DNA from: Anaerolineales bacterium
Lineage (GTDB): Bacteria; Chloroflexota; Anaerolineae; UBA1429
Direction of reading: 5' to 3'
DNA length: 54,744 bases
NCBI GenBank assembly: GCA_039680625.1
Contig: JBDKSN010000075.1
Location: forward strand, 1-54,744
Part shown: piece after piece, positions 3,895 to 46,634 of the stretch
How positions within the stretch are numbered: the stretch's first letter is position 1
Layout: each line of letters begins with the position of its first letter
Made by a program: the position numbers and the translations under genes
The notes under the pieces: model-generated
Databases searched by the model: none
The model's input: only the letters and a program-made list of their open reading frames with translations
Told to the model about the DNA's origin: nothing

Positions 3895-6216
3895 CTAGCG
3901 AGATGCCGACGTGCTGGGCGAGCGGCTATCGCCCTCGCCATCCTCGTCTCTCGCTGGCAGCACGGCTCGTGAGCGGCCCCCCGTGCCCACTGGGCCAACC
4001 ACGCCCAACTCTTCGAGCTGATCCATCAGGCGCGCCGCGCGAGGATAGCCCACACGCAGCTGACGCTGGAGAAAAGAAGCCGAGGCTTGTTGCTTTTCGC
4101 GGACGATGGCCACCGCCTGAGCTAAGAGGCCATCGTCATCCTCTTCGCTCTCTTCGCCCAACGTCATGCCCTCCCAGGGCGGACGCTCTGCGGCGACGGC
4201 CTCGCCCGCCCCCTGATCACTCACCGAGAGAGCGTCGGCGGCCACCGCTGGCGCGGCGCTCTGCCAATAGCGCACCAGAGCCTGTACCTCTTGGTCAGAG
4301 ACATAACTGCCCTGGATGCGCAACAGCTTGGCCGAGTCGGGCGGCATGAAGAGCATATCGCCGTTGCCGAGGAGCTTTTCCGCGCCGGGGCAGTCGAGGA
4401 CCACGCGGGAGTCCACCTGCGCCGTCACGGCAAAGCTGATGCGCGCGGGGAAATTGGCCTTGATCAGGCCCGTGACCACGTCCACCGAGGGCCGCTGCGT
4501 AGCCACGACCAGATGGATGCCCGTCGCCCGCGCCAACTGCGCCAGGCGGCAGATGATGCGCTCGACATCGTCGGGCGCGGCGAGCATCAGGTCGGCTAGC
4601 TCGTCGATCAGCACGACGATGCTGGGCTTGGTCGGCTCGCCGCGCGCTGCAGCCTTTCGGTTGTAAGAGCGCAAGTCGCGCACGCCGAGCTGGGCGAACT
4701 CTTGGTAGCGGCGGTCCATCTCGGTCAGCAGCCAACGCAGGGCGACGATGACCTGTTCCGCCTCGGTCAGCGCTGGAGAGAGCAGGTGTGGCAGCCCATT
4801 GAAGCGCGTCAGCTCGACGCGTTTGGGGTCTACCAACAAGAGGCGCAGCTGTGCGGGAGTGTTCTGCAGCAACAACGAGGCGATGATGGCGTTGAGGCAC
4901 ACGCTCTTGCCCGTGCCGGTGGCCCCGGCCACCAACAGGTGAGGCATGCGGGCCAGATCAGCCACCACTGGCTCTCCCGAGACGCCTCGCCCCAAGCCCA
5001 TACGCAGGTTCGAGTGCACACGCTGGAACTCGGCCGACTCGACCACGCCGCGCAGGCCCACCAGCGCCTTCTCGCGGTTGGGCACCTCGATGCCCACCAC
5101 GGCACGACCCGGGATCGGCGCCTCGATGCGGATGGGCGCTGCCGCCAAAGCCAACGCCAGGTCATTCTGCAGGCCCGAGATCCTGTTCACGCGCACCTTT
5201 TGCCGCTGGGTGCTGCCCGTGTTGTCTTGCCGCTCGACGTAGCCCGGCTCGACGCTGTATTGCGTGACCACCGGCCCGTGGCTCCAGCCAACGACGGTGG
5301 CGGGCACGCCAAAGGCAGCTAGGGTCTGCTCGATCACCTCGGCTTGATGGCGGCACTCGGCCTCGTCTCCGGCGATGGGATGGTCGGGGGCGAGCAGCGT
5401 CAGTGGTGGCAGCTCTGTGGCGACCGCCTTTGCCGACACGTTGCGCTCCTCTTGGGTGGGCGTTGGGCTCGCTACCTGGGTGGCCGCCGCTCGTTCCTTT
5501 GGACGTGGTCGAGAGGCCTGGCGAGACGCCGTCGGCTCTGGGCGTGCTGCACGATCCTTGGCGGCAATAACGGGCGCTGTACGGGGTGTTGCGGCCTGAT
5601 AGTAGCGCCGACGGTTGATGCGGTCGCGGATGGCCGTGCCCACACGCGCCCAAGCCCAGCGAACGTACCAACCGAGCAACGGCCAAGGCAGCGGCACGAT
5701 GAGGTGCAGCCCCCAGACCAGCAGGGCGAGCAGCAACAGTGTCGCCACCGCCTCACCAAGCAGCGGCACGAGGAGCTGATACAGCGCCCACCCGACCCAG
5801 CCACCCCCGTGGCCGTCTTGCGCCAGGCCATACGGCTCGGCGGTCGAGAGCACGTGCACCAGACCGAGCACCGCCAGCAAGACGAGCTCGCCGCCGAGCA
5901 CAGCTCGCCAGCGGATGGGCCACTTTTGCCGCAGCGCACCGCGCAGGTAGAGGAAGGCGCCGAGGCCGAACAGTAGCAGCGATAGCGGATAGGCGCCGAT
6001 GCCGACGGCGCGTCGCAGCCCCATCCAGACGCGATAGCCCAGCTCACCCTTGCCACCCGAAAAGACGGACAGGCAGATGATCAGCCCTAGGGCCATCAAG
6101 ACCAGGCCCCAGGTCTCCTGGCGCTTGAGCCAGGGGGGGCATTGCCAGCGAGGCTGCGTTTGTGCTTGGCGTTTCTTGGTTGGCATGATCCTAATCAAGA
6201 TGAGGGACCGGCTCAC
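3895..6216 (-). CDS. ftsK: DNA translocase FtsK/SpoIIIE
   Basis: 773 aa with N-terminal TM helices, a Pro/Ala-rich linker, Walker A LLVAGATGTGKS, VLIDELADL, HLVVATQRPS and a C-terminal winged-helix gamma domain (LLAQAVAIVREKQQASASFLQRQLRVGYPRAARLMDQLE). The start may instead be ATG 6186 (MPTKKRQ). Confidence 0.9.
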   Translation of the reverse strand: MSRSLILIRIMPTKKRQAQTQPRWQCPPWLKRQETWGLVLMALGLIICLSVFSGGKGELGYRVWMGLRRAVGIGAYPLSLLLFGLGAFLYLRGALRQKWPIRWRAVLGGELVLLAVLGLVHVLSTAEPYGLAQDGHGGGWVGWALYQLLVPLLGEAVATLLLLALLVWGLHLIVPLPWPLLGWYVRWAWARVGTAIRDRINRRRYYQAATPRTAPVIAAKDRAARPEPTASRQASRPRPKERAAATQVASPTPTQEERNVSAKAVATELPPLTLLAPDHPIAGDEAECRHQAEVIEQTLAAFGVPATVVGWSHGPVVTQYSVEPGYVERQDNTGSTQRQKVRVNRISGLQNDLALALAAAPIRIEAPIPGRAVVGIEVPNREKALVGLRGVVESAEFQRVHSNLRMGLGRGVSGEPVVADLARMPHLLVAGATGTGKSVCLNAIIASLLLQNTPAQLRLLLVDPKRVELTRFNGLPHLLSPALTEAEQVIVALRWLLTEMDRRYQEFAQLGVRDLRSYNRKAAARGEPTKPSIVVLIDELADLMLAAPDDVERIICRLAQLARATGIHLVVATQRPSVDVVTGLIKANFPARISFAVTAQVDSRVVLDCPGAEKLLGNGDMLFMPPDSAKLLRIQGSYVSDQEVQALVRYWQSAAPAVAADALSVSDQGAGEAVAAERPPWEGMTLGEESEEDDDGLLAQAVAIVREKQQASASFLQRQLRVGYPRAARLMDQLEELGVVGPVGTGGRSRAVLPARDEDGEGDSRSPSTSASR

Positions 6217-6351
6217 GAGCCCGATCTCGTCTCGTCACCCATCCTCGCCCCAGCCCGGGCGAAGGCGACGCGAAACCTGGTTCTAGCCGCTGTAACCGCA
6301 CTATAGGCCGAGGCCGCCGTCCGGGCCAGCGAGGCTTGGGTTAGGCCACGC

Positions 6352-7374
6352 TCAGTAAAGCAACATGGCTGGGCCGCCATCGTCGGAATCGTCCGAAGCG
6401 TCAGAGTCGTCGGTCGAGCCTTGACCGTTGGCGCGCTTCATGCTGAGGCTGAGGCGATGTCGGGTACTATCGATGCGCAAGATCGAGACCAGCACCCGGT
6501 CGCCCGCACTGGCGACATCCGCCGGGTGCCGGATGTGCTCATCCGAGATCTCGGAGATGTGCACGAGCCCTTCGAGGCCCTCCTCGATCTGCGCAAAGAG
6601 CCCAAAGTCGACCACATTCGTGACGGTAGCCTCGACGACGTCGCCTACCTGATAGTGCTGTTCGGCCAATGCCCAGGGGTTGGGCTGCAACCGCTTCAGG
6701 CTCAAGCCCACATGCCGCGTTGACCGATCGACCGAGAGCACGCACTCCTGGACCTCATCGCCGATGTGCAGCAGATCGCCCGGAGTCGTCACCCGCCCCC
6801 AAGACAGCTCGGAGATGTGGATCAGCCCGTCGAGCCCGCCCAGATCGACAAAGGCGCCGAAATCGCAGACGTTGCTCACTCGCCCGCGGCAGACGTCGCC
6901 CTCATTCAACTCCTCCAGCAGACGGATGCCGTCGGTCGGCCCCCACTGCGTGGCGCGCTCGGAGAACACCAGCCTGTTCCGCGCGCTGTCGAGCTCGATG
7001 ATCTTGACATCGAGCTCCTCGCCCACCCAGCGGATGAGCAGCTCTTCGCGCTGGCTTTCATCATCGACGAGCGGCACCTGTTTGAGCTGCGAGGCGGGGA
7101 CAAAGCCCTGCACCTCGCCCCAACGCACCAAGAGGCCACCGCGATTCCAGCCGGTGACGATGACGCTCAAGGTATCTCCCTGAGCATAATGGTGCTCGAG
7201 CTCATCCCAGGCTTGGGCCAACTCGGGCGAAAGGGGATAGACCCGCGCAGATTCTGCCTTGCCGCCCAACGGGACCGATCTCTCGGCACCCGGTTCGAGG
7301 GCGGTTTGCGCAGCGAGCAACTCGCGCGCACGCACGATAAAGCGCTGCAAGCCATCCAAACTGTAAACAGTCAT
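6352..7374 (-). CDS. S1 RNA-binding domain protein (three S1 repeats, acidic C-terminal tail)
   Basis: The repeats are GDTLSVIVTGWNRGGLLVRW..GFVPASQL, GDVCRGRVSNVCDFGAFVDLGG.DGLIHISELS and GDVVEATVTNVVDFGLFAQIEEGLEGLVHISEIS. The ORF is open to 7527. I prefer ATG 7374 (MTVYSLDG) because GAGGA sits about 10 nt upstream. The start is uncertain. Confidence 0.8.
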   Translation of the reverse strand: MTVYSLDGLQRFIVRARELLAAQTALEPGAERSVPLGGKAESARVYPLSPELAQAWDELEHHYAQGDTLSVIVTGWNRGGLLVRWGEVQGFVPASQLKQVPLVDDESQREELLIRWVGEELDVKIIELDSARNRLVFSERATQWGPTDGIRLLEELNEGDVCRGRVSNVCDFGAFVDLGGLDGLIHISELSWGRVTTPGDLLHIGDEVQECVLSVDRSTRHVGLSLKRLQPNPWALAEQHYQVGDVVEATVTNVVDFGLFAQIEEGLEGLVHISEISDEHIRHPADVASAGDRVLVSILRIDSTRHRLSLSMKRANGQGSTDDSDASDDSDDGGPAMLLY

Positions 7375-7783: not shown

Positions 7784-7856
7784 CGGGGTGTGGCGCAGTT
7801 GGCAGCGCGCAGCGTTTGGGACGCTGAAGTCGGAGGTTCGAGTCCTCTCACCCCGA
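7784..7856 (+). tRNA. tRNA-Pro (anticodon TGG)
   Basis: Manual cloverleaf: acceptor CGGGGTG/CACCCCG, D arm GCGC-AGTTGGCA-GCGC, anticodon arm CAGCG-TTTGGGA-CGCTG (UGG with G37), T arm GGAGG-TTCGAGT-CCTCT, discriminator A. No CCA is encoded. Confidence 0.9.
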
Positions 7857-7861
7857 CTTAT

Positions 7862-7934
7862 GCGGGCGTAGCTCAGTTGGCAGAGCTCCTGCCTTCCAAG
7901 CAGGTTGTCGCGCGTTCGAATCGCGTCGCCCGCT
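7862..7934 (+). tRNA. tRNA-Gly (anticodon TCC)
   Basis: Manual cloverleaf: acceptor GCGGGCG/CGCCCGC, D arm GCTC-AGTTGGCA-GAGC, anticodon arm CCTGC-CTTCCAA-GCAGG (UCC), T arm GCGCG-TTCGAAT-CGCGT, discriminator T. The next bases are CCT, so no full CCA is encoded. Confidence 0.9.
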
Positions 7935-7993
7935 CCTGAGTAGTTGGCCGGGCTTGGTACAGCCCCTCAGACTATTGCTAGCCGCGCATGAAT

Positions 7994-9846: not shown

Positions 9847-12309
9847 ATGCGCGTTCCTCTTGGCTGGGTGAGAGACCTGGTGAGCTGGGACCTAGAGTTG
9901 CCCGCGCTCTGCGAGCGGCTGACCCTCGGCGGCCTCGAAGTGGCCGGTGTCGAACAGGTCGGCGCAGAGTGGGATCGCACCAAGATCTGGGTGGGCGAGG
10001 TGTTGCGCGTCGAACAGCATCCGAACGCCGATCGCCTGGTGCTGGCCACGGTGGACTATGGCCATGGCGTGCTGCAAGTGGTCACCGGTGCGCCCAACCT
10101 GCACGTGGGTGATCACGGGCAAAAGGTCGTGCTGGCGCTGGAAGGCGCGCGGCTCATCGACGGTCACTCGGACACGCTCCGCTATCAGACGCTCAAGCGC
10201 GGCAAGATCCGTGGCATCGAGTCGGCCGGCATGGTCTGCTCAGAGAAGGAGCTGGGCATCTCGAACGAGCACGAGGGCATCCTCATCCTCGACGCCGATG
10301 CACCCAAGGGCGTGCCCTTTGCCGACTACTATGGTGACACGGTGCTCGATCTCGACCTGACGCCCAACCTGGCGCGCTGTTTCAGCATGTTGGGTGTGGC
10401 GCGCGAGGTGGCTGCGCTCACCGGCCAGCGGTTCGTCGAACCCGAGTATCCCCTGCAGACCGAAGGGCCGGCTATTGCCGGACAAGTCGAGATCGAGGTC
10501 GCCGACCCCGACCTGTGCCCGCGCTATAGCGCCGCGCTGATTCGAGATGTGCACATCGCCCCCTCGCCGGGCTGGATGCAGCGGCGGCTCAAGCTTGCCG
10601 GCATGCGCCCGATCAACAACCTCGTCGACATCACCAACTATGTGATGCTCGAGCTGGGGCAGCCCCTGCACGCTTTTGACTATCGACGGCTGCGACCACG
10701 GGCTGCGGGGGGCGTGCCCGCGATCATCGTGCGCCGCGCCAAGCCGGGCGAGCGCATGAACACGCTCGATGGCGCGCAACACACGTTGAGCGGCCAGGAG
10801 CTGCTCATTACCGATGGCGCGGGGCCCGTGGGCATCGCCGGAGTGATGGGTGGCCTGGAAAGCGAGGTGACCGAGCAGACGGTGGACGTGCTGCTCGAGG
10901 CCGCCAATTTCGACAACATCTCGATCCGGCACACGTCGGCGGCGCTCAAGCTGCCCAGCGAGGCAGCCCAGCGCTTTGGCCGCGGCGTCGACCCCGAGCT
11001 GACGCTGGTGGCGCTCCGTCGCGCCGCGGAGCTCATGCGCACGCTGGCCGGGGGCACCGTGGCTCGGGGTTTTGTCGACCTCTACCCGGGCAAGGCGCCG
11101 CTGCGCCACGTGACCTTTCCCCTGGCCGAAGTGCCGCGGCAGCTGGGCATCTCTCTGGCCAGACAAGAGGTCGAGGGCATGCTCACCCTGCTGGGCTTTG
11201 GCTGCGCGCCGACGGGGGACGGCACGGCGCTCGAGGTGGTGGTGCCGAGCTATCGGCTAGACGTATCGATTCCAGCCGACCTGATCGAGGAGGTCGCGCG
11301 CCTGTATGGCTATGACCGTCTGCCGACCACGCTCATCGCCGAAGAGATGCCGCACTTGCGTCCCGAACCCGCGCTCGAGCGCGAAGAGCGCGCTCGAGAC
11401 GTGCTGGTGGCCTGCGGCCTCACCGAGATCATCACCTATTCGCTGAACACGCTCGAAAGCGAGGCCCGGCTGGCGCCCGGCGCGCCGTTGCCCGATGGCA
11501 CCCGCTATTTGCGCGTGGCCAACCCGCTCTCGCGCGAGACCGAATACCTGCGCCAAACGTTGATGGCGAGCGTGCTCGAAGCGGTGGCGCGCAACCTGCG
11601 CTTTGTCGAGCGTGTGGCGGTGTTCGAGATCGGCCACATCTACCTGCGGCAAGAGGGCCAGGCGTTACCGGCCGAGCCGACCAAGATCTGCATCGCCCTC
11701 ACCGGGCCGCGCGAGCCGCGCTCTTGGCTGGCCCAAGAGAGCGCGAACATGGATTACTATGACTTGAAGGGCATCGTCGAGGCCCTCTGCCGACACCTGG
11801 GCGTCCAAGGAGCCTCGTTCGAGCCGGGCACTCACTCGGCGCTGCACCCCGGCCGCGCGGCTCACTTGCTGGTCAACGGCCAGGTGGCCGGCGTGTTGGG
11901 CGAGCTACACCCCCTGGTGCGGCAGCAGTTCGACCTGCCCGAGCAGGCCGTGTGCCTCGCCGAGCTCGACCTGGCGATGCTGATCGCGGCGGCGCAGCCC
12001 GTGGCGCGCCATACGCCCATCTCGCGTATGCCCACCGCCAAGCTAGACCTGGCAGTAGTGGTCGACGAGGCAGTGCCCAGCGACCGCGTAGAGGCGACGA
12101 TCCGCGAGACGGGCGGTGCATTGCTCGTCGATGTGGTGCTGTTCGACGTCTATCGCGGCCAGCAGCTCGGCGCGGGCAAAAAGAGCCTGGCCTACAGCCT
12201 GACCTTCCAGTCGCCCGACAAGACGTTGACCAGCGAAGAGGCGGTGCAACAGCGCGACCGTATCGTTCGAGCGTTGCAGCGCGCCTTCCAGGCCGAGATC
12301 CGCAGCTAG
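9847..12309 (+). CDS. pheT: Phenylalanine--tRNA ligase beta subunit
   Basis: 820 aa with an N-terminal tRNA-binding (EMAP-like) domain (VGEVLRVEQHPNADRLVL), B3/4 and B5 domains, and a C-terminal FDX-ACB domain (DVYRG..LG.GKKSLAYSLTFQ). Confidence 0.95.
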   Translation: MRVPLGWVRDLVSWDLELPALCERLTLGGLEVAGVEQVGAEWDRTKIWVGEVLRVEQHPNADRLVLATVDYGHGVLQVVTGAPNLHVGDHGQKVVLALEGARLIDGHSDTLRYQTLKRGKIRGIESAGMVCSEKELGISNEHEGILILDADAPKGVPFADYYGDTVLDLDLTPNLARCFSMLGVAREVAALTGQRFVEPEYPLQTEGPAIAGQVEIEVADPDLCPRYSAALIRDVHIAPSPGWMQRRLKLAGMRPINNLVDITNYVMLELGQPLHAFDYRRLRPRAAGGVPAIIVRRAKPGERMNTLDGAQHTLSGQELLITDGAGPVGIAGVMGGLESEVTEQTVDVLLEAANFDNISIRHTSAALKLPSEAAQRFGRGVDPELTLVALRRAAELMRTLAGGTVARGFVDLYPGKAPLRHVTFPLAEVPRQLGISLARQEVEGMLTLLGFGCAPTGDGTALEVVVPSYRLDVSIPADLIEEVARLYGYDRLPTTLIAEEMPHLRPEPALEREERARDVLVACGLTEIITYSLNTLESEARLAPGAPLPDGTRYLRVANPLSRETEYLRQTLMASVLEAVARNLRFVERVAVFEIGHIYLRQEGQALPAEPTKICIALTGPREPRSWLAQESANMDYYDLKGIVEALCRHLGVQGASFEPGTHSALHPGRAAHLLVNGQVAGVLGELHPLVRQQFDLPEQAVCLAELDLAMLIAAAQPVARHTPISRMPTAKLDLAVVVDEAVPSDRVEATIRETGGALLVDVVLFDVYRGQQLGAGKKSLAYSLTFQSPDKTLTSEEAVQQRDRIVRALQRAFQAEIRS

Positions 12310-32461: not shown

Positions 32462-33040
32462 ATGATCGCCAGCCTTTGCGGACAGGTGCAGTATCGTGAA
32501 GAGGACGCCCTGGTCGTGGTGGTGCAGGGCGTGGGCTACCGCGTGCACGTGGCTGATAGCGTCCTCGATGCCGTGCCTCACGTGGGCGCTCACGTCGAGC
32601 TGGTCACCGAGATGGTGGTGCGCGAGAACGAGATCGCGCTCTATGGCTTTCAAACAAGCGAAGAGCGCGACCTGTTTCGCTTGCTGCTGACCGTCAGCGG
32701 CGTGGGGCCACGCACGGCCATCGCCGTCCTCTCTACATTCTCGCCCGAGACGCTCCGCGCTGCTGTAGCGCATGACGATGTGGCGGCGTTGACGCGCATC
32801 CCAGGCATCGGGCGCAAGACGGCGCAACGCCTGGTGCTCGACCTCAGAGACCGAGTGGGCGTGCCCACCCAGCCCTGGCAGCCCGGGGCGCCGTCTGAGG
32901 GCGACGTGGATGTCCTCCAGGCACTGACGGCGCTCGGCTACAGCCTGGCAGAGGCCCAAGCGGCTCTAGTCGCCGTGCCCGCCGAGGCGACGACGCTGGA
33001 TGAGCGCATCCTCGCTGCGCTGCGCTCTCTCGGGGCCTAG
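32462..33040 (+). CDS. ruvA: Holliday junction branch migration complex subunit RuvA
   Basis: MIASLCGQV...VVVVQGVGYRVHV...LYGF....ERDLFRLLLTVSGVGPRTA...IPGIGRKTAQRLVLDL. No ruvB follows in this window. Confidence 0.95.
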   Translation: MIASLCGQVQYREEDALVVVVQGVGYRVHVADSVLDAVPHVGAHVELVTEMVVRENEIALYGFQTSEERDLFRLLLTVSGVGPRTAIAVLSTFSPETLRAAVAHDDVAALTRIPGIGRKTAQRLVLDLRDRVGVPTQPWQPGAPSEGDVDVLQALTALGYSLAEAQAALVAVPAEATTLDERILAALRSLGA

Positions 33041-34347
33041 GCCCCGAATAGCCCCTGGAACCAGATACCCAACTCGGGGAAAAGCCCAAGGGCCAGCAGG
33101 CAGAGGGCCAAGGCCAACAGTAACAGGCTCAGCCAGAGCGGCTCGCGACGGCTGCCCGGCGGCGGCGTAGAGCCCCACGAAGTGACGACGATCCGTGTGA
33201 CGCCCCAGGCAGGGCCAAGGGCACTCAGCACACAGACCCATGTCCACGGCGAACGCAGGTCAGCCATGCCGAGGATGGCTATGCGGCTGGCGTAGCCGAC
33301 GGTAGGGGGCAGGCCAGCGAGCGAGAGGCCGGCGATCCACACGGCCGTGAGCGTGAGCGGCGCCCGCCGAAAGGCACCAGCCAGCGGACGTAGGTCATCG
33401 GTGCCAAAGCAATAGGCCAGCACGCGAGCGGCCACCCATAACGTTGCGCAAGCCAGAGCGCGGTAGGCCAGATGTTGCGTGGCCAGGTTTAGCGCACCAG
33501 CGGATTCCGCACTCATCGCCAGGGCAGCGATGCCCACGTCGGCCAGAGCGGCATAGCCGGTCACGGCGCTGAGCTCTCGCGGCAGCAGGGCGCCCACGGC
33601 GCCATAGAGCAACGTAGCCACTCCCCCCCAGCGCAAGAACAAGCCCCAAGTTGCCAAGTCGCTCAGGGCGCTCAACTCGTTCAGGCGCAGCGAGGCGAGC
33701 AACCCCAAAGCGCACACCGCCAGAAAGGCGCCTGTGGGCCGCGAAGCGCGGCTCAGCGGCGGAGCCCACACGCCAAAGGGCAACACACCCAACACCAGGG
33801 CAAGCCCAAAGAGCGCCGCCGGCTGGCCCAAGAAGGTCAACGATAGCGGACTCTCGCCCCGCGCAGCCTCAGACACCCAGCCAGCAACCAGCAAGAGCAG
33901 CGTGCCGCTCAACAGCACGATGATCGTGCGCATGATGAGCTCGGGCGAGGTGGGGGCCAGCAAGCAGCAGGCGATGCCCAGCACTGCCAGCGCCATGAAC
34001 GCACCGGCGAGCTGCAGGCTCGTGGCGCATGCGGCAACCATCAGCAGGCCGAACGTGGCTAGCGCGCTCGACCACACTAGCGGGCTTTCGGGGGCGAGCC
34101 AACCGCCGCCCATCAGCAAGCCCAGCGCAACCGACAGCACACTCACGTAGAAAGCGCTCTGGGTACTCAGGGCCAGCGAGCGGCCCATCAAGTTCAGCGC
34201 CTCTTGGCCAGCAGCCAACGGTGCAAGCCCAGCCACCAAGAGACAGGCCAGCGCCGAGATCGACGCGGCAATCTGTCGCACCTGGCGCACCGGCCAGACA
34301 GCTAGCGCCGCCACAAAGGGGATGGCCAGCAAGGCGATGAGGGGCAT
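33037..34347 (-). CDS. Polytopic membrane protein, degenerate Mrp/complex-I antiporter-like (NuoN/MnhD-like) subunit, lysine-free
   Basis: 436 aa and highly hydrophobic. Remnant motifs are LPFGVWAPPLSRASRPTGAFL and IAGLSLAGLPPTVGY. It has an ATGA overlap with the upstream gene. Confidence 0.6.
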   Translation of the reverse strand: MPLIALLAIPFVAALAVWPVRQVRQIAASISALACLLVAGLAPLAAGQEALNLMGRSLALSTQSAFYVSVLSVALGLLMGGGWLAPESPLVWSSALATFGLLMVAACATSLQLAGAFMALAVLGIACCLLAPTSPELIMRTIIVLLSGTLLLLVAGWVSEAARGESPLSLTFLGQPAALFGLALVLGVLPFGVWAPPLSRASRPTGAFLAVCALGLLASLRLNELSALSDLATWGLFLRWGGVATLLYGAVGALLPRELSAVTGYAALADVGIAALAMSAESAGALNLATQHLAYRALACATLWVAARVLAYCFGTDDLRPLAGAFRRAPLTLTAVWIAGLSLAGLPPTVGYASRIAILGMADLRSPWTWVCVLSALGPAWGVTRIVVTSWGSTPPPGSRREPLWLSLLLLALALCLLALGLFPELGIWFQGLFGA

Positions 34348-34952
34348 CAGCCGGCCTCTTCTTGGTTGAGGCGCTGCACCTGATGCTCAGACAGCACCCC
34401 GATCACCAGAGCCAGGCCGATCTCGAGCAGGCCCAACAGGGCAGTCATCAGCAGGCCGTTGTCCATGTACAGGAAAGCGACCTCAAAGCCATTGAGCGCC
34501 GTCATGGTGGCCAGCCCCTGGCCCAACACCGAGCTTTCGGTGGCCGCGAGCAACATGCCCGCAAGCAAGAGCCAGTAGCAGGTCAACAGTGCGTCGGCGG
34601 GCAGGCCCGGCAGGCGAAACGCCCTTTGCAGGCCAGCCGCAGCAAAGCCAGCCAGGGCCACACAGAATATCCCAAATAGGCTGCCCATGCGCGCCAGTGG
34701 GTCGACCGCATCACGACGACGTTGGCGTTGCAGATGCGCCACCGAGCCAGCCGCGACCAAGAGGATCAGGCAGGCTGCCAACCCCAGCCCGAGTTGAGCA
34801 TAGAGCACCGGCCGCAGCAACGTCTGGCTGACCAGCACGGTACGCAACAAGACCTGCAGCGCCAGACCCAAGACGCCAAGCCTACGGGCCGAAAACGCCA
34901 GCAGCCCTGTGGCCAGGCAGAGCACGATGATCACCTGCGTGCTTGTCAGCAT
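34347..34952 (-). CDS. Polytopic membrane protein (201 aa, about 6 TM helices), unknown family, lysine-free
   Basis: Hydrophobic ORF translationally coupled to both neighbours, with a 13-nt gap upstream and an ATGA overlap downstream. Confidence 0.5.
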   Translation of the reverse strand: MLTSTQVIIVLCLATGLLAFSARRLGVLGLALQVLLRTVLVSQTLLRPVLYAQLGLGLAACLILLVAAGSVAHLQRQRRRDAVDPLARMGSLFGIFCVALAGFAAAGLQRAFRLPGLPADALLTCYWLLLAGMLLAATESSVLGQGLATMTALNGFEVAFLYMDNGLLMTALLGLLEIGLALVIGVLSEHQVQRLNQEEAG

Positions 34953-34965
34953 ATCGGGCCGCCGT

Positions 34966-36546
34966 TCACAGGCCGCTCTCCAGAGCGACGAGCAGCATCA
35001 CCACCACCCATAGCAATCCCCACAAGATGATCAGCCGTTCTTCCAAGAGGCCAAACAGGCGATACAAACCCTCTGCAGCCACGCCGAACGCGTGGTCGAG
35101 AGCCAGGGCGGCGCCCTCCCAGGCGCCCTGCCACACGGGGCGCACAGACTCTCGCCAGCGGTTGGCGCGCCGATTGGCCCGCAGCGCTGCGGGCGAAAGC
35201 GCCAACACAAAGCCGACGATGATGGGCAATAACAGCAGTACAAGGCTCACCACCACCCACTGGGCTGGCGCGCCGAACAGGGGCAGGCCAGAGCCGGCGA
35301 TACCCGGCACCACGCCGAGCACCAAGCCCAGCGCCGATAATGCTGCCCCCAAGCCCCAAGCGAGCCAGTCATTGGGCGGCTGCGAGCGCGTGGTCTGGCG
35401 AAGCCAGGGCATGAGCAACACCGCCGCCGTGGCGCAGGCGAGTGCCGCCCCCAGCACCTGCCAGAACGCCAACCAGCCGTCGCCCAAAGCCAGCGTCGCC
35501 GCCAGATCTTGCCAGCGGGCCACGGCCACTCCACCGGGCGCCAACCCGGCCAGCGAAGCCACGGCGACGATGCGCGGCAGCTGGTACGCCCCGGACTCCT
35601 CGACCCGTTCGAGCACCACCAGGGCCGCATAGGCGACGACCGCGCCCAGCAGTGCCAGCGTGGCCGCGCCGGCTCCCTCCCCAGCGTAGAGCACGCCCGC
35701 CAGCAGCGCCTGCCCAAAAGCCAGGCCATACAGCGCATCGAGGGCGCGACCGCGCGAGCCCCACAGCGCCGTCGACACGCCGGCAAAGAGCACGATGAGC
35801 GTGCCCAAGACGAGCAAGGGCGTCGCAACACGCGGGCTGAGAGCCGCTCCGCCCCCCAGAGTGCACAACAGATGCGCCGCCGTCACCGTGAGCGAGGCCA
35901 TTGTCGGCCAACGCAACGCCGGATAGCCCAGCAGTACGCCGCCCAAGCCCAGGGTGAAGGCAGCCGTGAGGATAGCGCCATAGGGCGGCGCCGCCGAGGC
36001 GTTGGCTGGCAGGCTCAACACCGCCGCCAGAGCGAGCGCCGCGAGAGCGCCGAGCACCCCCAACACGCCGAACACGGCAAAGGGGCCACGCGAGCCCGCC
36101 GGCAATGAGCCTTCGACCCACAGGATGACGATATCGAGCAGCCCAACAGCCAGAGCCGCGGCCAACGCATCCCGAGTGGCGAGGCACAGCAGCACCATGG
36201 CCACCAGCAGCGTCTCAGGCACTACACGGCGTTCTTCGCGAGGGTTGGCCAGGTGCGCAAGCGAGGCCAGCATCAGCACAGCCCCTTCGAGACGCGTGGC
36301 GTGATCCCACGCCAACGACAGGCCGTGATAGAGCCTGCCGGCGGGCACCGTCGCTGTGCTCGCTGGAAGCACCAGCACCACGAGCAGCAAGGCGACGTTG
36401 GCTCCCAGCCCGAATCGACGCGCCACGGTCGGCTGGCCGCGACGCAGCAGCGCCAGCCACACGACAGCGCCCAGAGTGGCGAGGGCAAAGGGGATAAGGG
36501 GCAACAGCATCCTGTCTCGATCCGTAAGTTGGCTGGATTCTAGCAC
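34966..36546 (-). CDS. Polytopic membrane protein (up to 526 aa), degenerate antiporter-like (NuoL/M-like) subunit, lysine-free
   Basis: Hydrophobic throughout. The remnant motif is VAVASLAGLAPGGVAV. The start is possibly ATG 36510 (MLLPLIPF). Confidence 0.55.
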   Translation of the reverse strand: MLESSQLTDRDRMLLPLIPFALATLGAVVWLALLRRGQPTVARRFGLGANVALLLVVLVLPASTATVPAGRLYHGLSLAWDHATRLEGAVLMLASLAHLANPREERRVVPETLLVAMVLLCLATRDALAAALAVGLLDIVILWVEGSLPAGSRGPFAVFGVLGVLGALAALALAAVLSLPANASAAPPYGAILTAAFTLGLGGVLLGYPALRWPTMASLTVTAAHLLCTLGGGAALSPRVATPLLVLGTLIVLFAGVSTALWGSRGRALDALYGLAFGQALLAGVLYAGEGAGAATLALLGAVVAYAALVVLERVEESGAYQLPRIVAVASLAGLAPGGVAVARWQDLAATLALGDGWLAFWQVLGAALACATAAVLLMPWLRQTTRSQPPNDWLAWGLGAALSALGLVLGVVPGIAGSGLPLFGAPAQWVVVSLVLLLLPIIVGFVLALSPAALRANRRANRWRESVRPVWQGAWEGAALALDHAFGVAAEGLYRLFGLLEERLIILWGLLWVVVMLLVALESGL

Positions 36547-43613: not shown

Positions 43614-43643
43614 AAGACGCCGAGCCAACGGGCTCGGCGTCTT
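43614..43643. terminator. Intrinsic terminator between convergent genes (AAGACGCCGAGCC-AACG-GGCTCGGCGTCTT)
   Basis: 13-bp stem. The U-run (UGUUUUG) is on the minus-strand side and an A-rich run is on the plus side. Confidence 0.75.
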
Positions 43644-43655
43644 GCAAGGTTACGC

Positions 43656-44021
43656 TCAGCTCTGCATCTGCAACTGAATATCTGGCTGGTCGATATAGAG
43701 GAGGATCAGCGCCGACAGCGCCATCGAAATGGCAAAGGTGACGGCCAGCTCGGTGTTGAAGCCGCCCTCTTCGGGCGGGCGCATGACGTTGCCCACGATC
43801 ACGAGCAGCCGCACGATGATGTTGAACCCCTGCACAAAGATGCTCGCGGTGCGGCTCGCTCCCCGACGCAGGATCAGGAACACCCCCAGCACGCCAAACA
43901 ACACCAAGATCGCGCCCCAAGCCACGGCGTTGAGGCTCTTGAGCACGTTGAGCGGCATGATGATGATGGGGATGAACTGAAAGATCGCGACCAAGATCAG
44001 GCCACGTGGCAGCTTTCTCAT
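43656..44021 (-). CDS. Hypothetical membrane protein (121 aa, about 4 TM helices) with its own strong promoter
   Basis: MRKLPRGLILVAIFQFIPIIIMPL.... GGGGGAGG RBS. Minus-strand promoter TTGACA-17-TAGAAT at 44052-44080. The gene is visibly less GC-rich than its neighbours. Confidence 0.6.
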   Translation of the reverse strand: MRKLPRGLILVAIFQFIPIIIMPLNVLKSLNAVAWGAILVLFGVLGVFLILRRGASRTASIFVQGFNIIVRLLVIVGNVMRPPEEGGFNTELAVTFAISMALSALILLYIDQPDIQLQMQS

Positions 44022-44193
44022 CTCGCCTCCCCCGCGGGCGGTATGAAGATGATTCTAGGGCGCACGAGGGGGCGTGTCAAAGTGCGCCGGTAGCCCTGGG
44101 ACGGTGCTCGCTCGAGATTACCGCCGACAAGGGCTATGCCCTCGCTGCACTGCAGCGTCGCCATAGTCGGTAAGAGTGAGGCGCGTTACCCTC

Positions 44194-46464
44194 CTAGATA
44201 GACGCTGCGGGCGTTGGCGAGGGTTCGGCCAGGCCGTGGGCGCGCAGCGCACGCTCGTACAGGTCGCAGCGCAGCCGCACGGGGCTACTCGGAGTGATCA
44301 CGCCGATCAGCTCGAGCGTGGCCAGCGCGGGATCGCTGCGCGTAAAGCGCAGGCGCTCGCCCGCCAGGATCTGGCGCAGACGAGCGCTGGCCGCAGGATC
44401 GGCGGCCACCCGCGCCACCGTGGCAGCGAGATGCTCGTCGGTCGCCAGCATGTTGTCCACAGCGTCGGCGATGGTCTGACGGTCGATGCTGACCACTTGA
44501 TGCCGTTGCAGCCAAGCACAGAGCTGCATGGTCAGGTAAGGGTGCCCGCCCGTGGCCTGCAACACGAGTTGCGGCGCCTCTTCACTGATGTGCACGCCCT
44601 GCGTGGCGAATTGCGCCAGGATGCCGCCGATCTGCAACACATCCAGGTCGCCCAGGTAGATGCACTCGGCGACGTGCAGCGGCGAGTTGCGCTGGCTGGC
44701 CAGATTGCGCAAATCGAGCGCCCCGGCGAGCACGAAAAAGTACTTGGCCAAGGGGCCATCGGTGCCGCGTGCTCGCACCAAGATCGAGCGCAGTGCGGCC
44801 CACACGCCCGCAGTGACGTCGGCCGGCAGGCGATCCAGCTGATCGAGCAGCACGGTGATGCGCGGCGTCGGACTGGCTGCGGCCAACGCCTCGAGCAGCG
44901 CGAGCCAGTCGGCAGCGGTGGTGATCTCGTCCAGCGGGTGCGCGGCCAGTGCGTTCGCGATGGGCGAGGCCTGGCGCAATACGGCCTGCCGCACGCGGCG
45001 CAGCGGGCCACCTTGCGCCGCCCAATCGGCATCGAGTTGCGCCGCGATGGCCTGCGCCACATAGCGCAAGCAGCCGACCAGATCGGCGTCCGACAGCGCG
45101 GCCAGGTCGCTATACACGCACGACTGCTCGGCGCGCAGTTCCTCTTGCACCTGCAAGAGCAGGGTCGTTTTACCGCTATAGGGCGAGCCAAGGACGACGA
45201 CATATTGCGCAATGGCCGGTTGCCGGGCCATCTTCAGGATGCGCGCCATCTCATCACGGCGCAGCCGCAAGGCGCCACTCTCGCCCGACCGCAGCGGCCC
45301 ATGCGTTACCCAGGCTTGCTCGGCCGTGCGGGTAACCGGCCTTGGCACCGTTTGAGCCGCAGGCGAAGAGGCCTGCGTCGCGACGGCCTCGGCCTCCTCG
45401 GCCTCCGACGTCTTGCGCGCAGCGAGCCACAGTTTGCCCGACAGCGAGCGCATATAGAGCACTGGCGCCGCCCAATCGGCAGGCTCTCCGCCGGCGGTGC
45501 TGATGGCCAGGCGCCCCTCGGTCATACACTCGTCCATCGTCAGGTCGAGCGACACGGCACGATAAAAGGCGCTGCCAAAGCGCGTCGCCGCCTCATCTTC
45601 TACGGGCCACTGCATGGCAATGACGGCGGGCATATCGCCGCGCATCAGCGCCGCAGCCAGGCCCATGATCTGGCCGCGTGCTGTGTTGCAGGCATTTAGG
45701 AAGACGAGCTGGGTCTTGTGACGGCAGAGCAGTCGCGCGAGCGCTCGCGCTTCGAGCGGCGCCGCATCGCCATGGGCATCTTCGAACAAGAGCGAGCCGG
45801 TCTGTCGCGTGGCGTCATACTCGCCATGCCCCACAAAGTGCACGATCTCGGGCATCACCTCGATGAGGCGCTCCTGCAGGCCCTGCGGGGTGGCGTGCGC
45901 ACACACGACCAGGTTGATGCGCCCCTGATCGATGAGCTCTTGCAGCGAACTCTGCACCAGCGCGACCTCATGCTCCCAGTCGAGCGGGGGGCGGTTGTAG
46001 GGAGAGGCCGCGACCACCAACACCGTCAAGCGGCCGGCTGTGATCGGCTCGGGCTGGGGGCTGGGGATGCGGGCGTAGCGTGCGATAGAGACGCGCCGAT
46101 CATAGATCACATAGTCTTGCCGAGCCGGATCATACAACAGCTCCCAGGGGAGCTGGGCCAGGCGGCCATCGTCAGTGTGGATGCGCAGACGCAGGCCGCG
46201 GCGCCGATCGATCGCACACTGATAGCTCCGGCCCCAGGCATCACGGATGCCGTCGGCAAAGACGTTCTGCCAGAGGAGCTGCCCCAAGCGCTGGGCGTTG
46301 TCTTCGGCATAGAGCAGGCGCTCGCCCTGCGCCTCTGGCTCGATATCGAGGCGCACGCGTTGGGGTGGCACCTCGCCCGCGGGCGATTGCAGCACCTCGG
46401 CAAGCATATCCCTGGACGTCGGGTCCCAGTCAGAGACGCGTAGATCCAGGCTCAAGTACAGCAT
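44194..46464 (-). CDS. CHAT-domain (caspase-like) protease fused to a P-loop STAND/AAA_35-like NTPase
   Basis: 756 aa with LPWELLYD, the His motif EIVHFVGHGEY, the Cys motif LVFLNACNTARG, Walker A VVLGSPYSGKTTLL, Walker B ITVLLDQLD and TGGHPYLT. Minus-strand promoter TTGACG-18-TATAAT at 46501-46530. GAGGAG RBS. Confidence 0.85.
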   Translation of the reverse strand: MLYLSLDLRVSDWDPTSRDMLAEVLQSPAGEVPPQRVRLDIEPEAQGERLLYAEDNAQRLGQLLWQNVFADGIRDAWGRSYQCAIDRRRGLRLRIHTDDGRLAQLPWELLYDPARQDYVIYDRRVSIARYARIPSPQPEPITAGRLTVLVVAASPYNRPPLDWEHEVALVQSSLQELIDQGRINLVVCAHATPQGLQERLIEVMPEIVHFVGHGEYDATRQTGSLLFEDAHGDAAPLEARALARLLCRHKTQLVFLNACNTARGQIMGLAAALMRGDMPAVIAMQWPVEDEAATRFGSAFYRAVSLDLTMDECMTEGRLAISTAGGEPADWAAPVLYMRSLSGKLWLAARKTSEAEEAEAVATQASSPAAQTVPRPVTRTAEQAWVTHGPLRSGESGALRLRRDEMARILKMARQPAIAQYVVVLGSPYSGKTTLLLQVQEELRAEQSCVYSDLAALSDADLVGCLRYVAQAIAAQLDADWAAQGGPLRRVRQAVLRQASPIANALAAHPLDEITTAADWLALLEALAAASPTPRITVLLDQLDRLPADVTAGVWAALRSILVRARGTDGPLAKYFFVLAGALDLRNLASQRNSPLHVAECIYLGDLDVLQIGGILAQFATQGVHISEEAPQLVLQATGGHPYLTMQLCAWLQRHQVVSIDRQTIADAVDNMLATDEHLAATVARVAADPAASARLRQILAGERLRFTRSDPALATLELIGVITPSSPVRLRCDLYERALRAHGLAEPSPTPAASI

Positions 46465-46634
46465 CGACTCCTCTAGACAGACCAGCCCTCATTGCCGGGC
46501 ATTATAGCCGCCTCGCGCGAGAGGCGTCAAGCATCGACGTAAAGCTGGCGAGAGGGCGTGGGGAGTTGGCCTCGGTTGACGCCAGGGGGCACAGTCGGGC
46601 TATAATGGCGGCAGCTCACCCCGAGGCGCTCGCC

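Follow-up and report, generated by a model that had tools for sequence, protein, structure and literature searches.

A CHAT protease fused to an AAA_35-type NTPase at a conserved chromosomal site of uncultured Anaerolineales: a candidate nucleotide-gated caspase-like protease

The gene and its overall architecture

The stretch of DNA analysed here (hereafter the window) comprises positions 1 to 54,744 of contig JBDKSN010000075.1 from Anaerolineales bacterium assembly GCA_039680625.1 (GTDB lineage Bacteria; Chloroflexota; Anaerolineae; UBA1429). Next to the divergent gene rpiA it carries a complete open reading frame (ORF) of 756 amino acids, in which an N-terminal CHAT (caspase-like) protease is joined through a disordered linker to a nucleoside triphosphatase (NTPase) of the AAA_35 type (Table 1). 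The ORF opens with ATG, and its start position coincides in the alignment with the N-termini of all orthologs. The identical public protein, P0001, has 'MAG: CHAT domain-containing protein [Anaerolineales bacterium]' as its sole annotation (MAG, metagenome-assembled genome). About 60-62 clusters of full-length CHAT-NTPase orthologs were found, and the residue conservation counts given below refer to 31 aligned full-length family members with 37-65% identity to the window protein.

An AlphaFold2 model built from 31 orthologs (mean predicted local distance difference test score, pLDDT, 81.5; predicted template-modelling score, pTM, 0.67) consists of two folded halves with the disordered linker between them. 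Residues 1-340 form a three-stranded N-terminal meander followed by an alpha/beta CHAT domain, and residues 400-745 a P-loop domain of alpha/beta type that has a helical lid and finishes in a helical, winged-helix-like segment spanning residues 662-745. The pLDDT of residues 351-398 lies below 50, and the linker is the region with the highest entropy and most indels of the ortholog alignment, the CHAT part being the most conserved region of the protein (mean column entropy of 1.17 bits). The NTPase is not followed by a TPR or WD40 domain, and no SAVED or TPR domain was detected in the window protein by the Pfam scan; the protein ends about 10 residues past the winged helix. The fusion of a CHAT domain with an AAA_35-type P-loop NTPase, which an earlier prediction made from the letters of the sequence had proposed, is therefore confirmed by Pfam, by the ortholog alignment and by the structure model. 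The motif and codon coordinates of this original prediction all proved exact, and of the Pfam families that it expected, PF12770 and PF14516 score above their cutoffs.

Table 1. Features of the CHAT-NTPase gene and its immediate surroundings (positions in the window)
Feature	Coordinates	Strand	Remarks
Complete 756-aa ORF	44194..46464	(-)	CHAT protease + linker + AAA_35-type NTPase
Conserved N-terminal beta-meander (aa 1-40) and CHAT caspase-fold domain, aa 1-340	45445..46464	(-)
H213 codon CAT, predicted catalytic His (VGHG)	45826..45828	(-)	Invariant in 31 orthologs
C259 codon TGC, predicted catalytic Cys (LNAC)	45688..45690	(-)	30/31 orthologs
Ala/Glu/Pro/Thr-rich disordered linker, aa 341-382	45319..45444	(-)	Low pLDDT, alignment
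AAA_35-type NTPase module, aa 383-745	44230..45318	(-)	Pfam, alignment, AlphaFold2 model
Walker A, G426-SPYSGKTT-L435	45160..45189	(-)	GKTT 431-434 invariant
Walker B, D541-Q542	44839..44844	(-)	Asp invariant; Gln confined to window clade
GHPYL, G640-L644, GxP-type, start of lid helix	44533..44547	(-)	Invariant in family
Sigma-70-like promoter, TTGACG-18-TATAAT	46501..46530	(-)	11/12 consensus positions
121-aa gene with four transmembrane segments (4-TM), neighbour only	43656..44021	(-)	Adjacent in all rpiA-syntenic loci
13-bp GC-rich hairpin, bidirectional-terminator-like	43614..43643	(.)	Between convergent 4-TM and ABC-permease genes

The CHAT protease half

The CHAT assignment is based on a match to PF12770 of 120.5 bits against a cutoff of 24 (E=1.3e-34), which extends over residues 57-337 and over profile positions 4-287 of 289. 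The half contains the motifs LPWELLYD (105-112), TVLVVAASP (147-155) and EIVHFVGHGEY (206-216), and the segment QLVFLNACNTARG at 252-264 that contains C259. H213 and C259 align to the HG and NAC dyad positions of the SAVED-CHAT protein of PDB entry 8tl0, which supports the originally proposed reading of this pair as the catalytic dyad; the sole ortholog without an equivalent of C259, P0007, has a Gly there. In the AlphaFold2 model H213 ends the strand formed by residues 207-217 and C259 ends that formed by residues 253-259; a caspase fold is expected to place its dyad in this way, at the C-terminal end of one strand and of the next.

SAVED-CHAT 8tl0 is the best match to the CHAT half both in sequence and in structure. 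A profile search of PDB sequences retrieved it at E=5.8e-14, and Foldseek placed it on top for the N-terminal half (E=9e-11), followed by the CHAT domain of DdvA (8rot) and by separase. DdvA gives the superposition with the lowest root-mean-square deviation on the CHAT half, 6.8 A over 365 columns. The best NCBIfam match is HetF, for the CHAT region only; orthology with HetF was ruled out by the equivalog model NF045509, with 75.2 bits against a cutoff of 1200.

The NTPase half and its Walker B motif

The NTPase module matches AAA_35 (PF14516) with 29.5 bits against a cutoff of 27, over residues 536-738 and profile positions 129-327 only, and around the P-loop the matches to AAA_16, AAA_22, ATPase_2 and NACHT all remain below the Pfam thresholds. 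The AAA_35 assignment is strengthened because 73 of 77 relatives of the NTPase half match this family in a Pfam census, with E-values down to 1e-65. The module begins with the motifs FxTxGPL and R403-x-E405. Both R403 and E405, located about 27 residues ahead of K432, are invariant in the 31 orthologs, as are R559 and R566. The segment VVLGSPYSGKTTLL at 423-436 holds the Walker A motif, in which the codon of K432 occupies 45169-45171, and it is followed by ITVLLDQLD at 536-544 and TGGHPYLT at 638-645. The GHPYL signature, to which the original prediction had drawn attention, has been kept by the whole family, and its Gly and Pro are at least 90% conserved across the 77 distant NTPase relatives. 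R-x-E, GxP lid and winged-helix motifs are reportedly listed as STAND features by Leipe and colleagues in 2004. Foldseek matches of the NTPase half are HslU, ORC/Cdc6, RuvB, RFC and RuvBL, with the whole protein as the query, which limits resolution, and a search of PDB sequences returned nothing significant for this half (the CHAT half alone matched). The NTPase thus looks STAND-like by its motifs and nearest to ORC/Cdc6-type AAA+ proteins by fold search, and is best labelled 'AAA_35-type, STAND-like'. No characterised AAA_35/PF14516 NTPase was found in the searchable literature, in which name-based queries gave unrelated or uninformative matches.

Two traits of the NTPase set apart the small clade of the family to which the window protein belongs (the window clade). 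The first is a helical insertion of about 22 residues, roughly residues 483-504, between Walker A and Walker B. The second concerns Walker B itself, which reads D-Q-[LV]-D in all five window-clade members (D-Q-L-D in the window), whereas every other family member has D-E-[VL]-G. The Glu that is replaced here is at least 90% conserved among the 77 distant NTPase relatives. In P-loop ATPases of this kind, a change from Glu to Gln after the Walker B Asp classically stops hydrolysis and leaves binding. The window-clade Gln is accompanied by an Asp three residues after D541, and this co-occurring Asp might compensate for the lost Glu.

Relatives of the two domains

The NTPase half (residues 395-756) was searched alone against 1.84 billion representative proteins, which yielded 880 matches at E<=1e-3 and 209 at E<=1e-10. 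Most of the best 148 of these 880 matches lack a CHAT domain (136), 8 have the order NTPase-then-CHAT and 4 the order CHAT-then-NTPase. Among these best 148 the NTPase-first order is therefore twice as frequent as that of the window protein, P0285 (753 aa) being an example of an AAA_35 NTPase followed by CHAT. In the CHAT-less relatives the NTPase module is typically N-terminal and the proteins have 350-750 residues. These AAA_35 fusions contain the same module as the window protein, recognisable by FxTxGPL, R-x-E, GKT, D-E, SPLN, GHPYL and the winged helix; most of them have the NTPase at the N-terminus and the extra module at the C-terminus, whereas in the window protein CHAT comes first. 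In the census of 77 relatives, the domains found besides AAA_35 are TIR_2 (12), TIR (10), CHAT (6), Pkinase (4), GAF_3 (4), Peptidase_C14 (3), SpoIIE (3), FGE-sulfatase (3) and WD40 (2). In other organisms this type of NTPase is thus fused to TIR, CHAT, caspase, kinase and PP2C modules.

The nearest CHAT domains outside the family belong to CHAT-EAD1, CHAT-NACHT, CHAT-NB-ARC and CHAT-NB-ARC-TPR proteins (the last according to precomputed Pfam annotations). PF19955, which occurs in these nearest CHAT relatives, was considered as a possible EACC1 domain and rejected, PF19955 being EAD1. A separate match is an 'AAA-like domain-containing protein' encoded at 32918-33892 of Tolypothrix sp. PCC 7910 plasmid NZ_CP050444.1, whose CHAT region is 32% identical to that of the window protein. 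Swappable effectors are a hallmark of NTP-dependent conflict and signalling systems of multicellular bacteria (Kaur et al., PMC7159879), and it is mainly because of this pattern that a cell-death or immune-type output is kept as the leading hypothesis for the family.

The C-terminal module of relatives and its loss

Twenty of the 31 aligned members carry an additional C-terminal module of about 170 residues, giving full proteins of about 910 residues. The structure model of this module (pLDDT 90.9, pTM 0.88) has Foldseek matches that are weak (best E=9e-3) and nearly all to PD-(D/E)xK nucleases, i.e., EcoT38I, Ecl18kI, MspJI, AspBHI, PspGI, the nuclease domain of Avs4, Cap4 and XisH. A PDB sequence search with the module gave nothing significant, and only 1 of the 20 modules, that of P0034, passes the Pfam threshold for Mrr_cat (32.6 bits against 21, E=9.5e-8). 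The D...ExK residues are also intact only in P0034, although each of E and D is present in about half of the members. For the most part, the module therefore probably has a nuclease fold whose catalytic site is degenerate; it may serve in binding or sensing, or be a second effector in decay.

In the window clade, a simple neighbour-joining tree of the family places P0005, which retains the module, at the base; the other four members lack it. Also devoid of the module are a second clade (P0058/31/37/42/44/55) and P0043. This distribution implies that the module was lost at least twice independently, and the tree shows the module-bearing layout as the ancestral one and the missing sensor of the window protein as a secondary loss. 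The compact, sensor-less architecture described in the original prediction thus stands for the window copy, but as a derived state rather than as the plan of the family. The module-less form retains all catalytic motifs in at least 4 window-clade species and in at least 7 of the second clade, and since the motifs are kept across species these proteins are likely to be functional variants and not decaying ones.

Chromosomal site, distribution and promoter

The three closest orthologs (P0002, P0004 and P0005; 61-65% identity) occupy the same rpiA-adjacent arrangement as the window gene. Upstream lies the divergent rpiA, preceded by xanthine/uracil permease, AIRS-like, PolyA-polymerase and PAC2 genes, and downstream lie small membrane-protein genes and an ATP-binding cassette (ABC) transporter operon of the Bmp type. 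The more distant P0058 (38-39% identity) still adjoins rpiA, AIRS and PolyA_pol, without the ABC operon. Because P0058 keeps the rpiA site without the operon, the ABC operon and not the CHAT gene is the variable element. In a scan of one genome per GTDB species, about 38 species representatives carry the CHAT-NTPase, at one locus each, a count that can miss divergent members because the distribution scans were seeded by patterns. All carriers are uncultured Anaerolineae, Anaerolineales or Chloroflexota MAGs, and all relatives come from MAG or metagenome contigs, several of the related contigs being derived from bioreactor metagenomes. At the rpiA locus, which alone was inspected there, no CHAT-NTPase lies beside the gene in four other Anaerolineae with an rpiA 61-65% identical, and the CHAT-NTPase is therefore not class-wide. 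The GC content at third codon positions (GC3) is 0.81 for the CHAT-NTPase gene, 0.79 for rpiA and 0.86-0.87 for other neighbours. The CHAT-NTPase is vertically inherited at a fixed housekeeping site in a small group of uncultured Anaerolineales. Such fixed synteny, here found within the sub-lineage, had been named beforehand in the original prediction, together with the lack of a defence or toxicity phenotype, as an outcome that would speak against it.

A second large clade (about 910 aa; P0022, P0041 and P0060) is located in other housekeeping contexts. In this clade a protein of about 470 residues with an N-terminal signal or transmembrane segment is conserved divergently upstream of the CHAT-NTPase gene; it occurs at 15 loci, is 54-57% identical among the three compared, and usually has a GH172 gene beyond it (L008:8451-9854(-), L009:8354-9775(-), L010:8293-9732(-) and L010:14900-16306(+)). 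L010 and L046 have a second paralog of it downstream of the CHAT-NTPase gene. This secreted protein has no Pfam match and no homolog in the window, and it was dropped as relevant to the window locus for lack of such a homolog. Among the loci compared, no gene neighbour is conserved across the whole family, so that the description of the gene as stand-alone holds, and no CRISPR-type genes were found within about 8 kb on either side in the window.

The gene's own promoter, TTGACG-18-TATAAT, had likewise been predicted, and is borne out by phylogenetic footprinting (46530-46501, minus strand). A promoter scan found 2 promoter-like sites against 0.5 expected. Both TTGACGC and GCTATAAT are invariant in the five orthologous upstream regions, which are otherwise 61% identical and contain large indels; invariant hexamers in such divergent regions support a real and probably old promoter of the CHAT gene. 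A second intergenic element, [GC]CGATTATAGCC, located at about 46590-46610 of the window (alignment columns 60-75), is common to 3 of the 5 intergenic regions (window, L001 and L011), has a variant in L006 and is absent from L004. Its reverse complement, GGCTATAATCG[CG], resembles a -10 box, apparently that of the promoter of the divergent rpiA.

Comparison with known systems

The combination of a caspase-like protease with a STAND-type NTPase is already known, both by prediction (PMC7159879) and by experiment (PMC12642450). The experimental case is KrAvs12 of Ktedonobacter racemifer, in which the STAND protein Avs12 carries a caspase-like protease; it was reconstituted with EACC1 and sets the precedent for activation of a STAND-fused caspase-like protease by oligomerisation (PMC12642450); Avs12 and bacterial Apaf-1-like proteins are also treated in PMC13581612. 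KrAvs12 and the window protein both come from Chloroflexota hosts and both begin with a caspase-like Cys protease that is followed by a P-loop NTPase. The output of KrAvs12 depends on the catalytic Cys, and NTPase assembly that activates the protease is the expected logic for both. Unlike the window protein, Avs12 binds a phage structural protein through a large sensor, and it is paired with a dedicated upstream gene for the pore-forming substrate EACC1. At the window locus the upstream gene is the divergent rpiA, which is not co-oriented, and neither the 4-TM protein nor the DUF5671-like proteins described below have a Pfam match to EACC1. The window NTPase is moreover AAA_35-type without an Avs model match, and its context is a stable housekeeping one.

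The predicted case is 'System 4', prevalent in actinobacteria and sporadic in proteobacteria, in which the N-terminal caspase-superfamily peptidase is constant and a C-terminal STAND NTPase is one of the alternative modules (PMC7159879). The CHAT-NTPase family shares this layout and, like 'System 4', is enriched in bacteria with a multicellular habit; the nearest CHAT relatives of the window protein carry EAD1, NACHT or NB-ARC. The CHAT-NTPase differs in that the defining gene, which encodes the small single-TM EACC1 immediately 5' of the caspase gene, is absent, and in that the family is not diversifying, but single-copy and syntenic. The claim of the original prediction that no member of this architecture has been characterised thus fails for the architecture class, given KrAvs12 (PMC12642450), and still applies, in the searchable literature, to the CHAT-AAA_35 family and to AAA_35 NTPases. 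What sets this family apart is the AAA_35 NTPase, the lack of a repeat sensor and of EACC1, the repeatedly lost degenerate nuclease-fold module and the vertical, housekeeping-like behaviour.

In SAVED-CHAT and TPR-CHAT/Csx29 of type III CRISPR systems, activation comes from SAVED filaments driven by cyclic oligoadenylate or from the gRAMP-RNA complex, whose place is occupied in the window protein by an NTPase. HetF is a CHAT protease that degrades PatU3 at the divisome of filamentous cyanobacteria (Anabaena; PMC9457339, PMC8406250), and its role shows that CHAT proteases can be developmental rather than immune. Like the CHAT-NTPase gene, that of HetF has a stable chromosomal locus, and the HetF host is filamentous; unlike the window protein, HetF is membrane-anchored and has no NTPase, and the window locus has no PatU3-like neighbour. 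DdvA of Myxococcus (PDB 8rot) is a CHAT-bearing transmembrane anti-sigma factor that regulates a CBASS/CRISPR island (PMC11506125) and, as a membrane anti-sigma factor without an NTPase, also differs from the window protein.

Proposed mechanism and alternative explanations

The reading favoured here, to which a probability of roughly 0.5 is given, is that the window protein is a stand-alone, nucleotide-gated caspase-like protease, lineage-specific and vertically inherited, with an abortive-infection or programmed-cell-death type of output. The ancestral layout would have been a CHAT domain, a disordered linker, an AAA_35-type NTPase with its winged helix and a C-terminal restriction-endonuclease-fold module. 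In the proposed mechanism, ATP binding would drive self-association of the NTPase, as in STAND and ORC/Cdc6-type switches, and self-association would gather the tethered CHAT domains and activate them by proximity, in analogy with the caspase-Avs12 fusion (PMC12642450). The active CHAT domain would then cleave cellular proteins in trans or its own linker; because there is no dedicated substrate gene, a protease acting on cellular proteins in trans or on itself is the most likely case. The outcome would be growth arrest or death of one cell in a filament. Since no separate sensor domain is left, the input would have to come through the NTPase and winged-helix body or through the expression level, and in the window clade the Walker B Gln would slow hydrolysis and thereby prolong the on-state.

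Several observations weigh against this reading. No solved STAND protein (Apaf-1, NLRs, MalT or Avs) is among the top 50 Foldseek matches of the whole-protein query, and the Walker B Gln could equally be compatible with an NTPase cycle that has become dispensable in the window clade. The protein is conserved evenly along its length, without a hypervariable sensor, and variability is confined to loops, the linker and the insert between Walker A and Walker B. The gene is single-copy, with stable synteny and housekeeping neighbours, and has neither a defence island around it nor a mobile-element association. No relative was found in the viral contigs of IMG/VR, and the plasmids of PLSDB gave only distant matches (about 30% identity) to the CHAT domain alone. 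The PADLOC check for a known defence system proposed in the original prediction returned only weak partial matches: neither PADLOC nor NCBIfam, in libraries that do not extend to Avs11-21, recognises a known defence family. There are weak matches of the CHAT part to SAVED_CHAT and BovA, and matches limited to the P-loop segment with the Avs5 models, at E=0.09 in PADLOC and E=0.4 in NCBIfam (8.5 bits, the cutoff being 1000). In short, the domain relatives point to conflict systems and the genomic behaviour to a domesticated, lineage-fixed function.

The genomic behaviour is what gives weight to the foremost alternative, a domesticated regulatory protease with a non-lethal role in the core of the lineage, such as the cleavage of regulators of division, septum or filament development, with the NTPase as its putative switch for timing or assembly, as likened to HetF-PatU3 (PMC9457339, PMC8406250) or to separase. 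This explanation is a tentative one and ranks below the death-type protease. It would account for a single copy that remains syntenic with rpiA, AIRS and PolyA_pol down to 38-39% identity, for housekeeping neighbours in every clade, for the lack of mobile-element links and for host-like GC3 and even conservation; HetF as the best NCBIfam match to the CHAT region and separase among the fold matches agree with it, and described Anaerolineae isolates are filamentous according to work cited in PMC10907252. However, the HetF score of 75 bits against 1200 means that the protein is not a HetF ortholog, the gene is limited to a sub-lineage and missing next to rpiA from the four Anaerolineae mentioned above, the nearest CHAT and NTPase relatives belong to conflict-type architectures (TIR, EAD1, NACHT and NB-ARC), and an ancestral nuclease-fold module is hard to fit to a role at the divisome.

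Neighbouring membrane-protein genes

An alternative of a different kind, which must be considered improbable, is a two-gene module in which CHAT would cleave the cytoplasmic C-terminal tail of the 4-TM protein encoded next to it (Table 1) and so set free an activity that disrupts the membrane; in sister species a DUF5671-like protein with two transmembrane segments (2-TM) would also be cleaved, as likened to caspase-EACC1, protease-Pepco and protease-gasdermin pairs. The original prediction had considered the 4-TM gene, which it described as separately promoted and of lower GC content, as a possible partner because of its adjacency. Its protein has four hydrophobic segments, and the gene has a GC content of 0.59 and a GC3 of 0.86 like the neighbouring genes; because the GC3 matches, the lower GC results from amino-acid composition. 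The N-terminus and the C-terminal tail are predicted to be cytoplasmic by the positive-inside rule, and the core RVA[ST]IFVQG and the tail P-D-x-Q-x-x-M-Q are invariant. In favour of a module, the 4-TM gene follows the CHAT gene in the same orientation, immediately downstream in all rpiA-syntenic loci and also in four loci without rpiA; no hairpin comparable to that after the 4-TM gene lies between the CHAT and 4-TM genes, the DUF5671-like gene overlaps the CHAT stop codon in orthologs, the invariant tail is on the predicted cytoplasmic side, and protease-licensed membrane effectors have a precedent (PMC12642450).

Against this, the 4-TM family comprises at least 192 homolog clusters in a profile search versus about 62 for the CHAT-NTPase, and 103 of 120 4-TM homologs among the matches listed lie outside all compared loci. 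The two genes are separated in MAG GCA_964407215.1, where contig CAYOUT010000007.1 carries the 4-TM homolog P0506 and contig CAYOUT010000002.1 the CHAT-NTPase P0022; as in the window, P0506 converges on a Bmp ABC operon, its upstream neighbours are HAD hydrolases, and its vicinity contains no CHAT gene. In about half of the CHAT-NTPase loci a 4-TM gene is missing from the surrounding 8-10 kb. The 4-TM gene shares synteny with the F2-F7-F8 or ABC genes downstream as well and has its own promoter-like site, and the protein has no EACC1, Pepco or gasdermin match in Pfam or PADLOC. The size of the family and the separate contigs rule out the 4-TM protein as an obligate partner, and its adjacency in the window lineage is best explained by shared synteny. 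A pattern-based metagenome scan in which 10 of 10 4-TM loci lay beside a CHAT gene was discarded as an artefact of narrow peptide patterns.

The 4-TM family consists of unannotated small membrane proteins of about 122 residues, the named sources of which are all Anaerolineae/Chloroflexi MAGs. At L067:8001-8369, in an unrelated MAG, the gene is convergent with a Bmp-type (nucleoside-like) ABC operon, as in the window, and the 4-TM protein may instead be tied functionally to the Bmp-type ABC transporter. The DUF5671-like 2-TM gene (115-120 aa, Pfam E=1.4e-7) is found directly after the CHAT-NTPase gene in sister species (L001:12277-12627, L004:12851-13198, L006:6630-6992 and L011 at about 10268-10588). 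Its overlap with the CHAT stop codon, of 4 nucleotides in L001, suggests translational coupling. This gene has been lost from the window, where 172 nucleotides are left between the CHAT and 4-TM genes (44021-44194). In L006 a TruD pseudouridine synthase gene (5403-6560) separates the CHAT-NTPase gene from the small membrane genes, and because of this intervening gene the CHAT and membrane genes need not be contiguous. Homologs of the membrane proteins F2 and F7 are encoded beyond the ABC operon of the window (34455-36459, minus strand), and in distant relatives F2, F7 and a Proton_antipo_M protein directly follow the 4-TM gene. The different F2/F7 positions indicate an older CHAT/4-TM/F2/F7/F8 block that has either received or lost the Bmp ABC operon.

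Two other observations in the window do not concern these genes. A 507-aa antisense ORF at 44176-45699 (plus strand) and other long overlaps are Arg/Ala/Gly-rich shadow ORFs, as expected in DNA of 67% GC, and not genes. The tandem tRNA-Pro(TGG) and tRNA-Gly(TCC) at 7784-7936 (plus strand), the window's only Rfam/ARAGORN matches, are unrelated to the CHAT-NTPase.

That the window copy is a decaying, non-functional remnant is still less probable than a two-gene module. The loss of the module of about 170 residues, the D-Q of Walker B and the disappearance from the window of the DUF5671-like neighbour of the sister species would fit such a fate, but the gene has an uninterrupted reading frame, every other invariant residue and a conserved promoter; moreover, the same module-less form is shared by no fewer than 4 diverged species (62-65% identity), the motifs persist in an independent module-less clade, and D-Q is also found in P0005, which retains the module. 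Scarcely credible, finally, is the one-gene insertion of the original prediction, in which a mobile defence cassette of a single gene would recently have entered the space between the ABC operon and rpiA. Although the domain composition resembles that of single-gene STAND defence proteins and the gene is divergent from rpiA under its own conserved promoter, orthologs at 61-65% and 38-39% identity occupy the same position, with one copy per genome in about 38 species, the ABC operon and not the CHAT gene varies between clades, the gene is absent from the phage and plasmid collections apart from the distant CHAT matches, and its GC3 of 0.81 is like that of its neighbours (0.79-0.87).

Concluding remarks

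Apoptosomes and inflammasomes are built on caspase-like proteases coupled to oligomerising NTPases, and such pairs have lately been demonstrated in anti-phage systems of bacteria too. The bacterial examples known so far are nearly all patchy, fast-evolving and sensor-bearing, with a dedicated toxic substrate encoded alongside. The CHAT-AAA_35 family is the opposite in every respect, being single-copy, deeply syntenic, evenly conserved and partnerless family-wide, with an only accessory domain that has been lost repeatedly. If active, the window protein would be a minimal two-domain system in which to see how an NTPase alone gates a caspase-like protease, and the natural difference between D-E and D-Q in sister clades offers a ready-made comparison for the role of hydrolysis. 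Because all carriers are uncultured MAGs, such work would have to be heterologous.

A more far-reaching proposal, which is speculative and on balance unlikely, is that an immune-type caspase-NTPase has been fixed and domesticated in one Anaerolineales lineage, losing its nuclease-fold module and gaining a hydrolysis-impairing D-Q-x-D, and would now be a core, self-contained cell-fate switch. If true, the switch might control, e.g., sacrificial cell death, filament fragmentation or division. A domesticated CHAT-NTPase would be a bacterial parallel to apoptosome-like machinery co-opted for development and would provide the first functional assignment for the AAA_35 class of NTPases, and the family, if active, would be a test case for whether immune-type modules become fixed cellular regulators in Anaerolineales.

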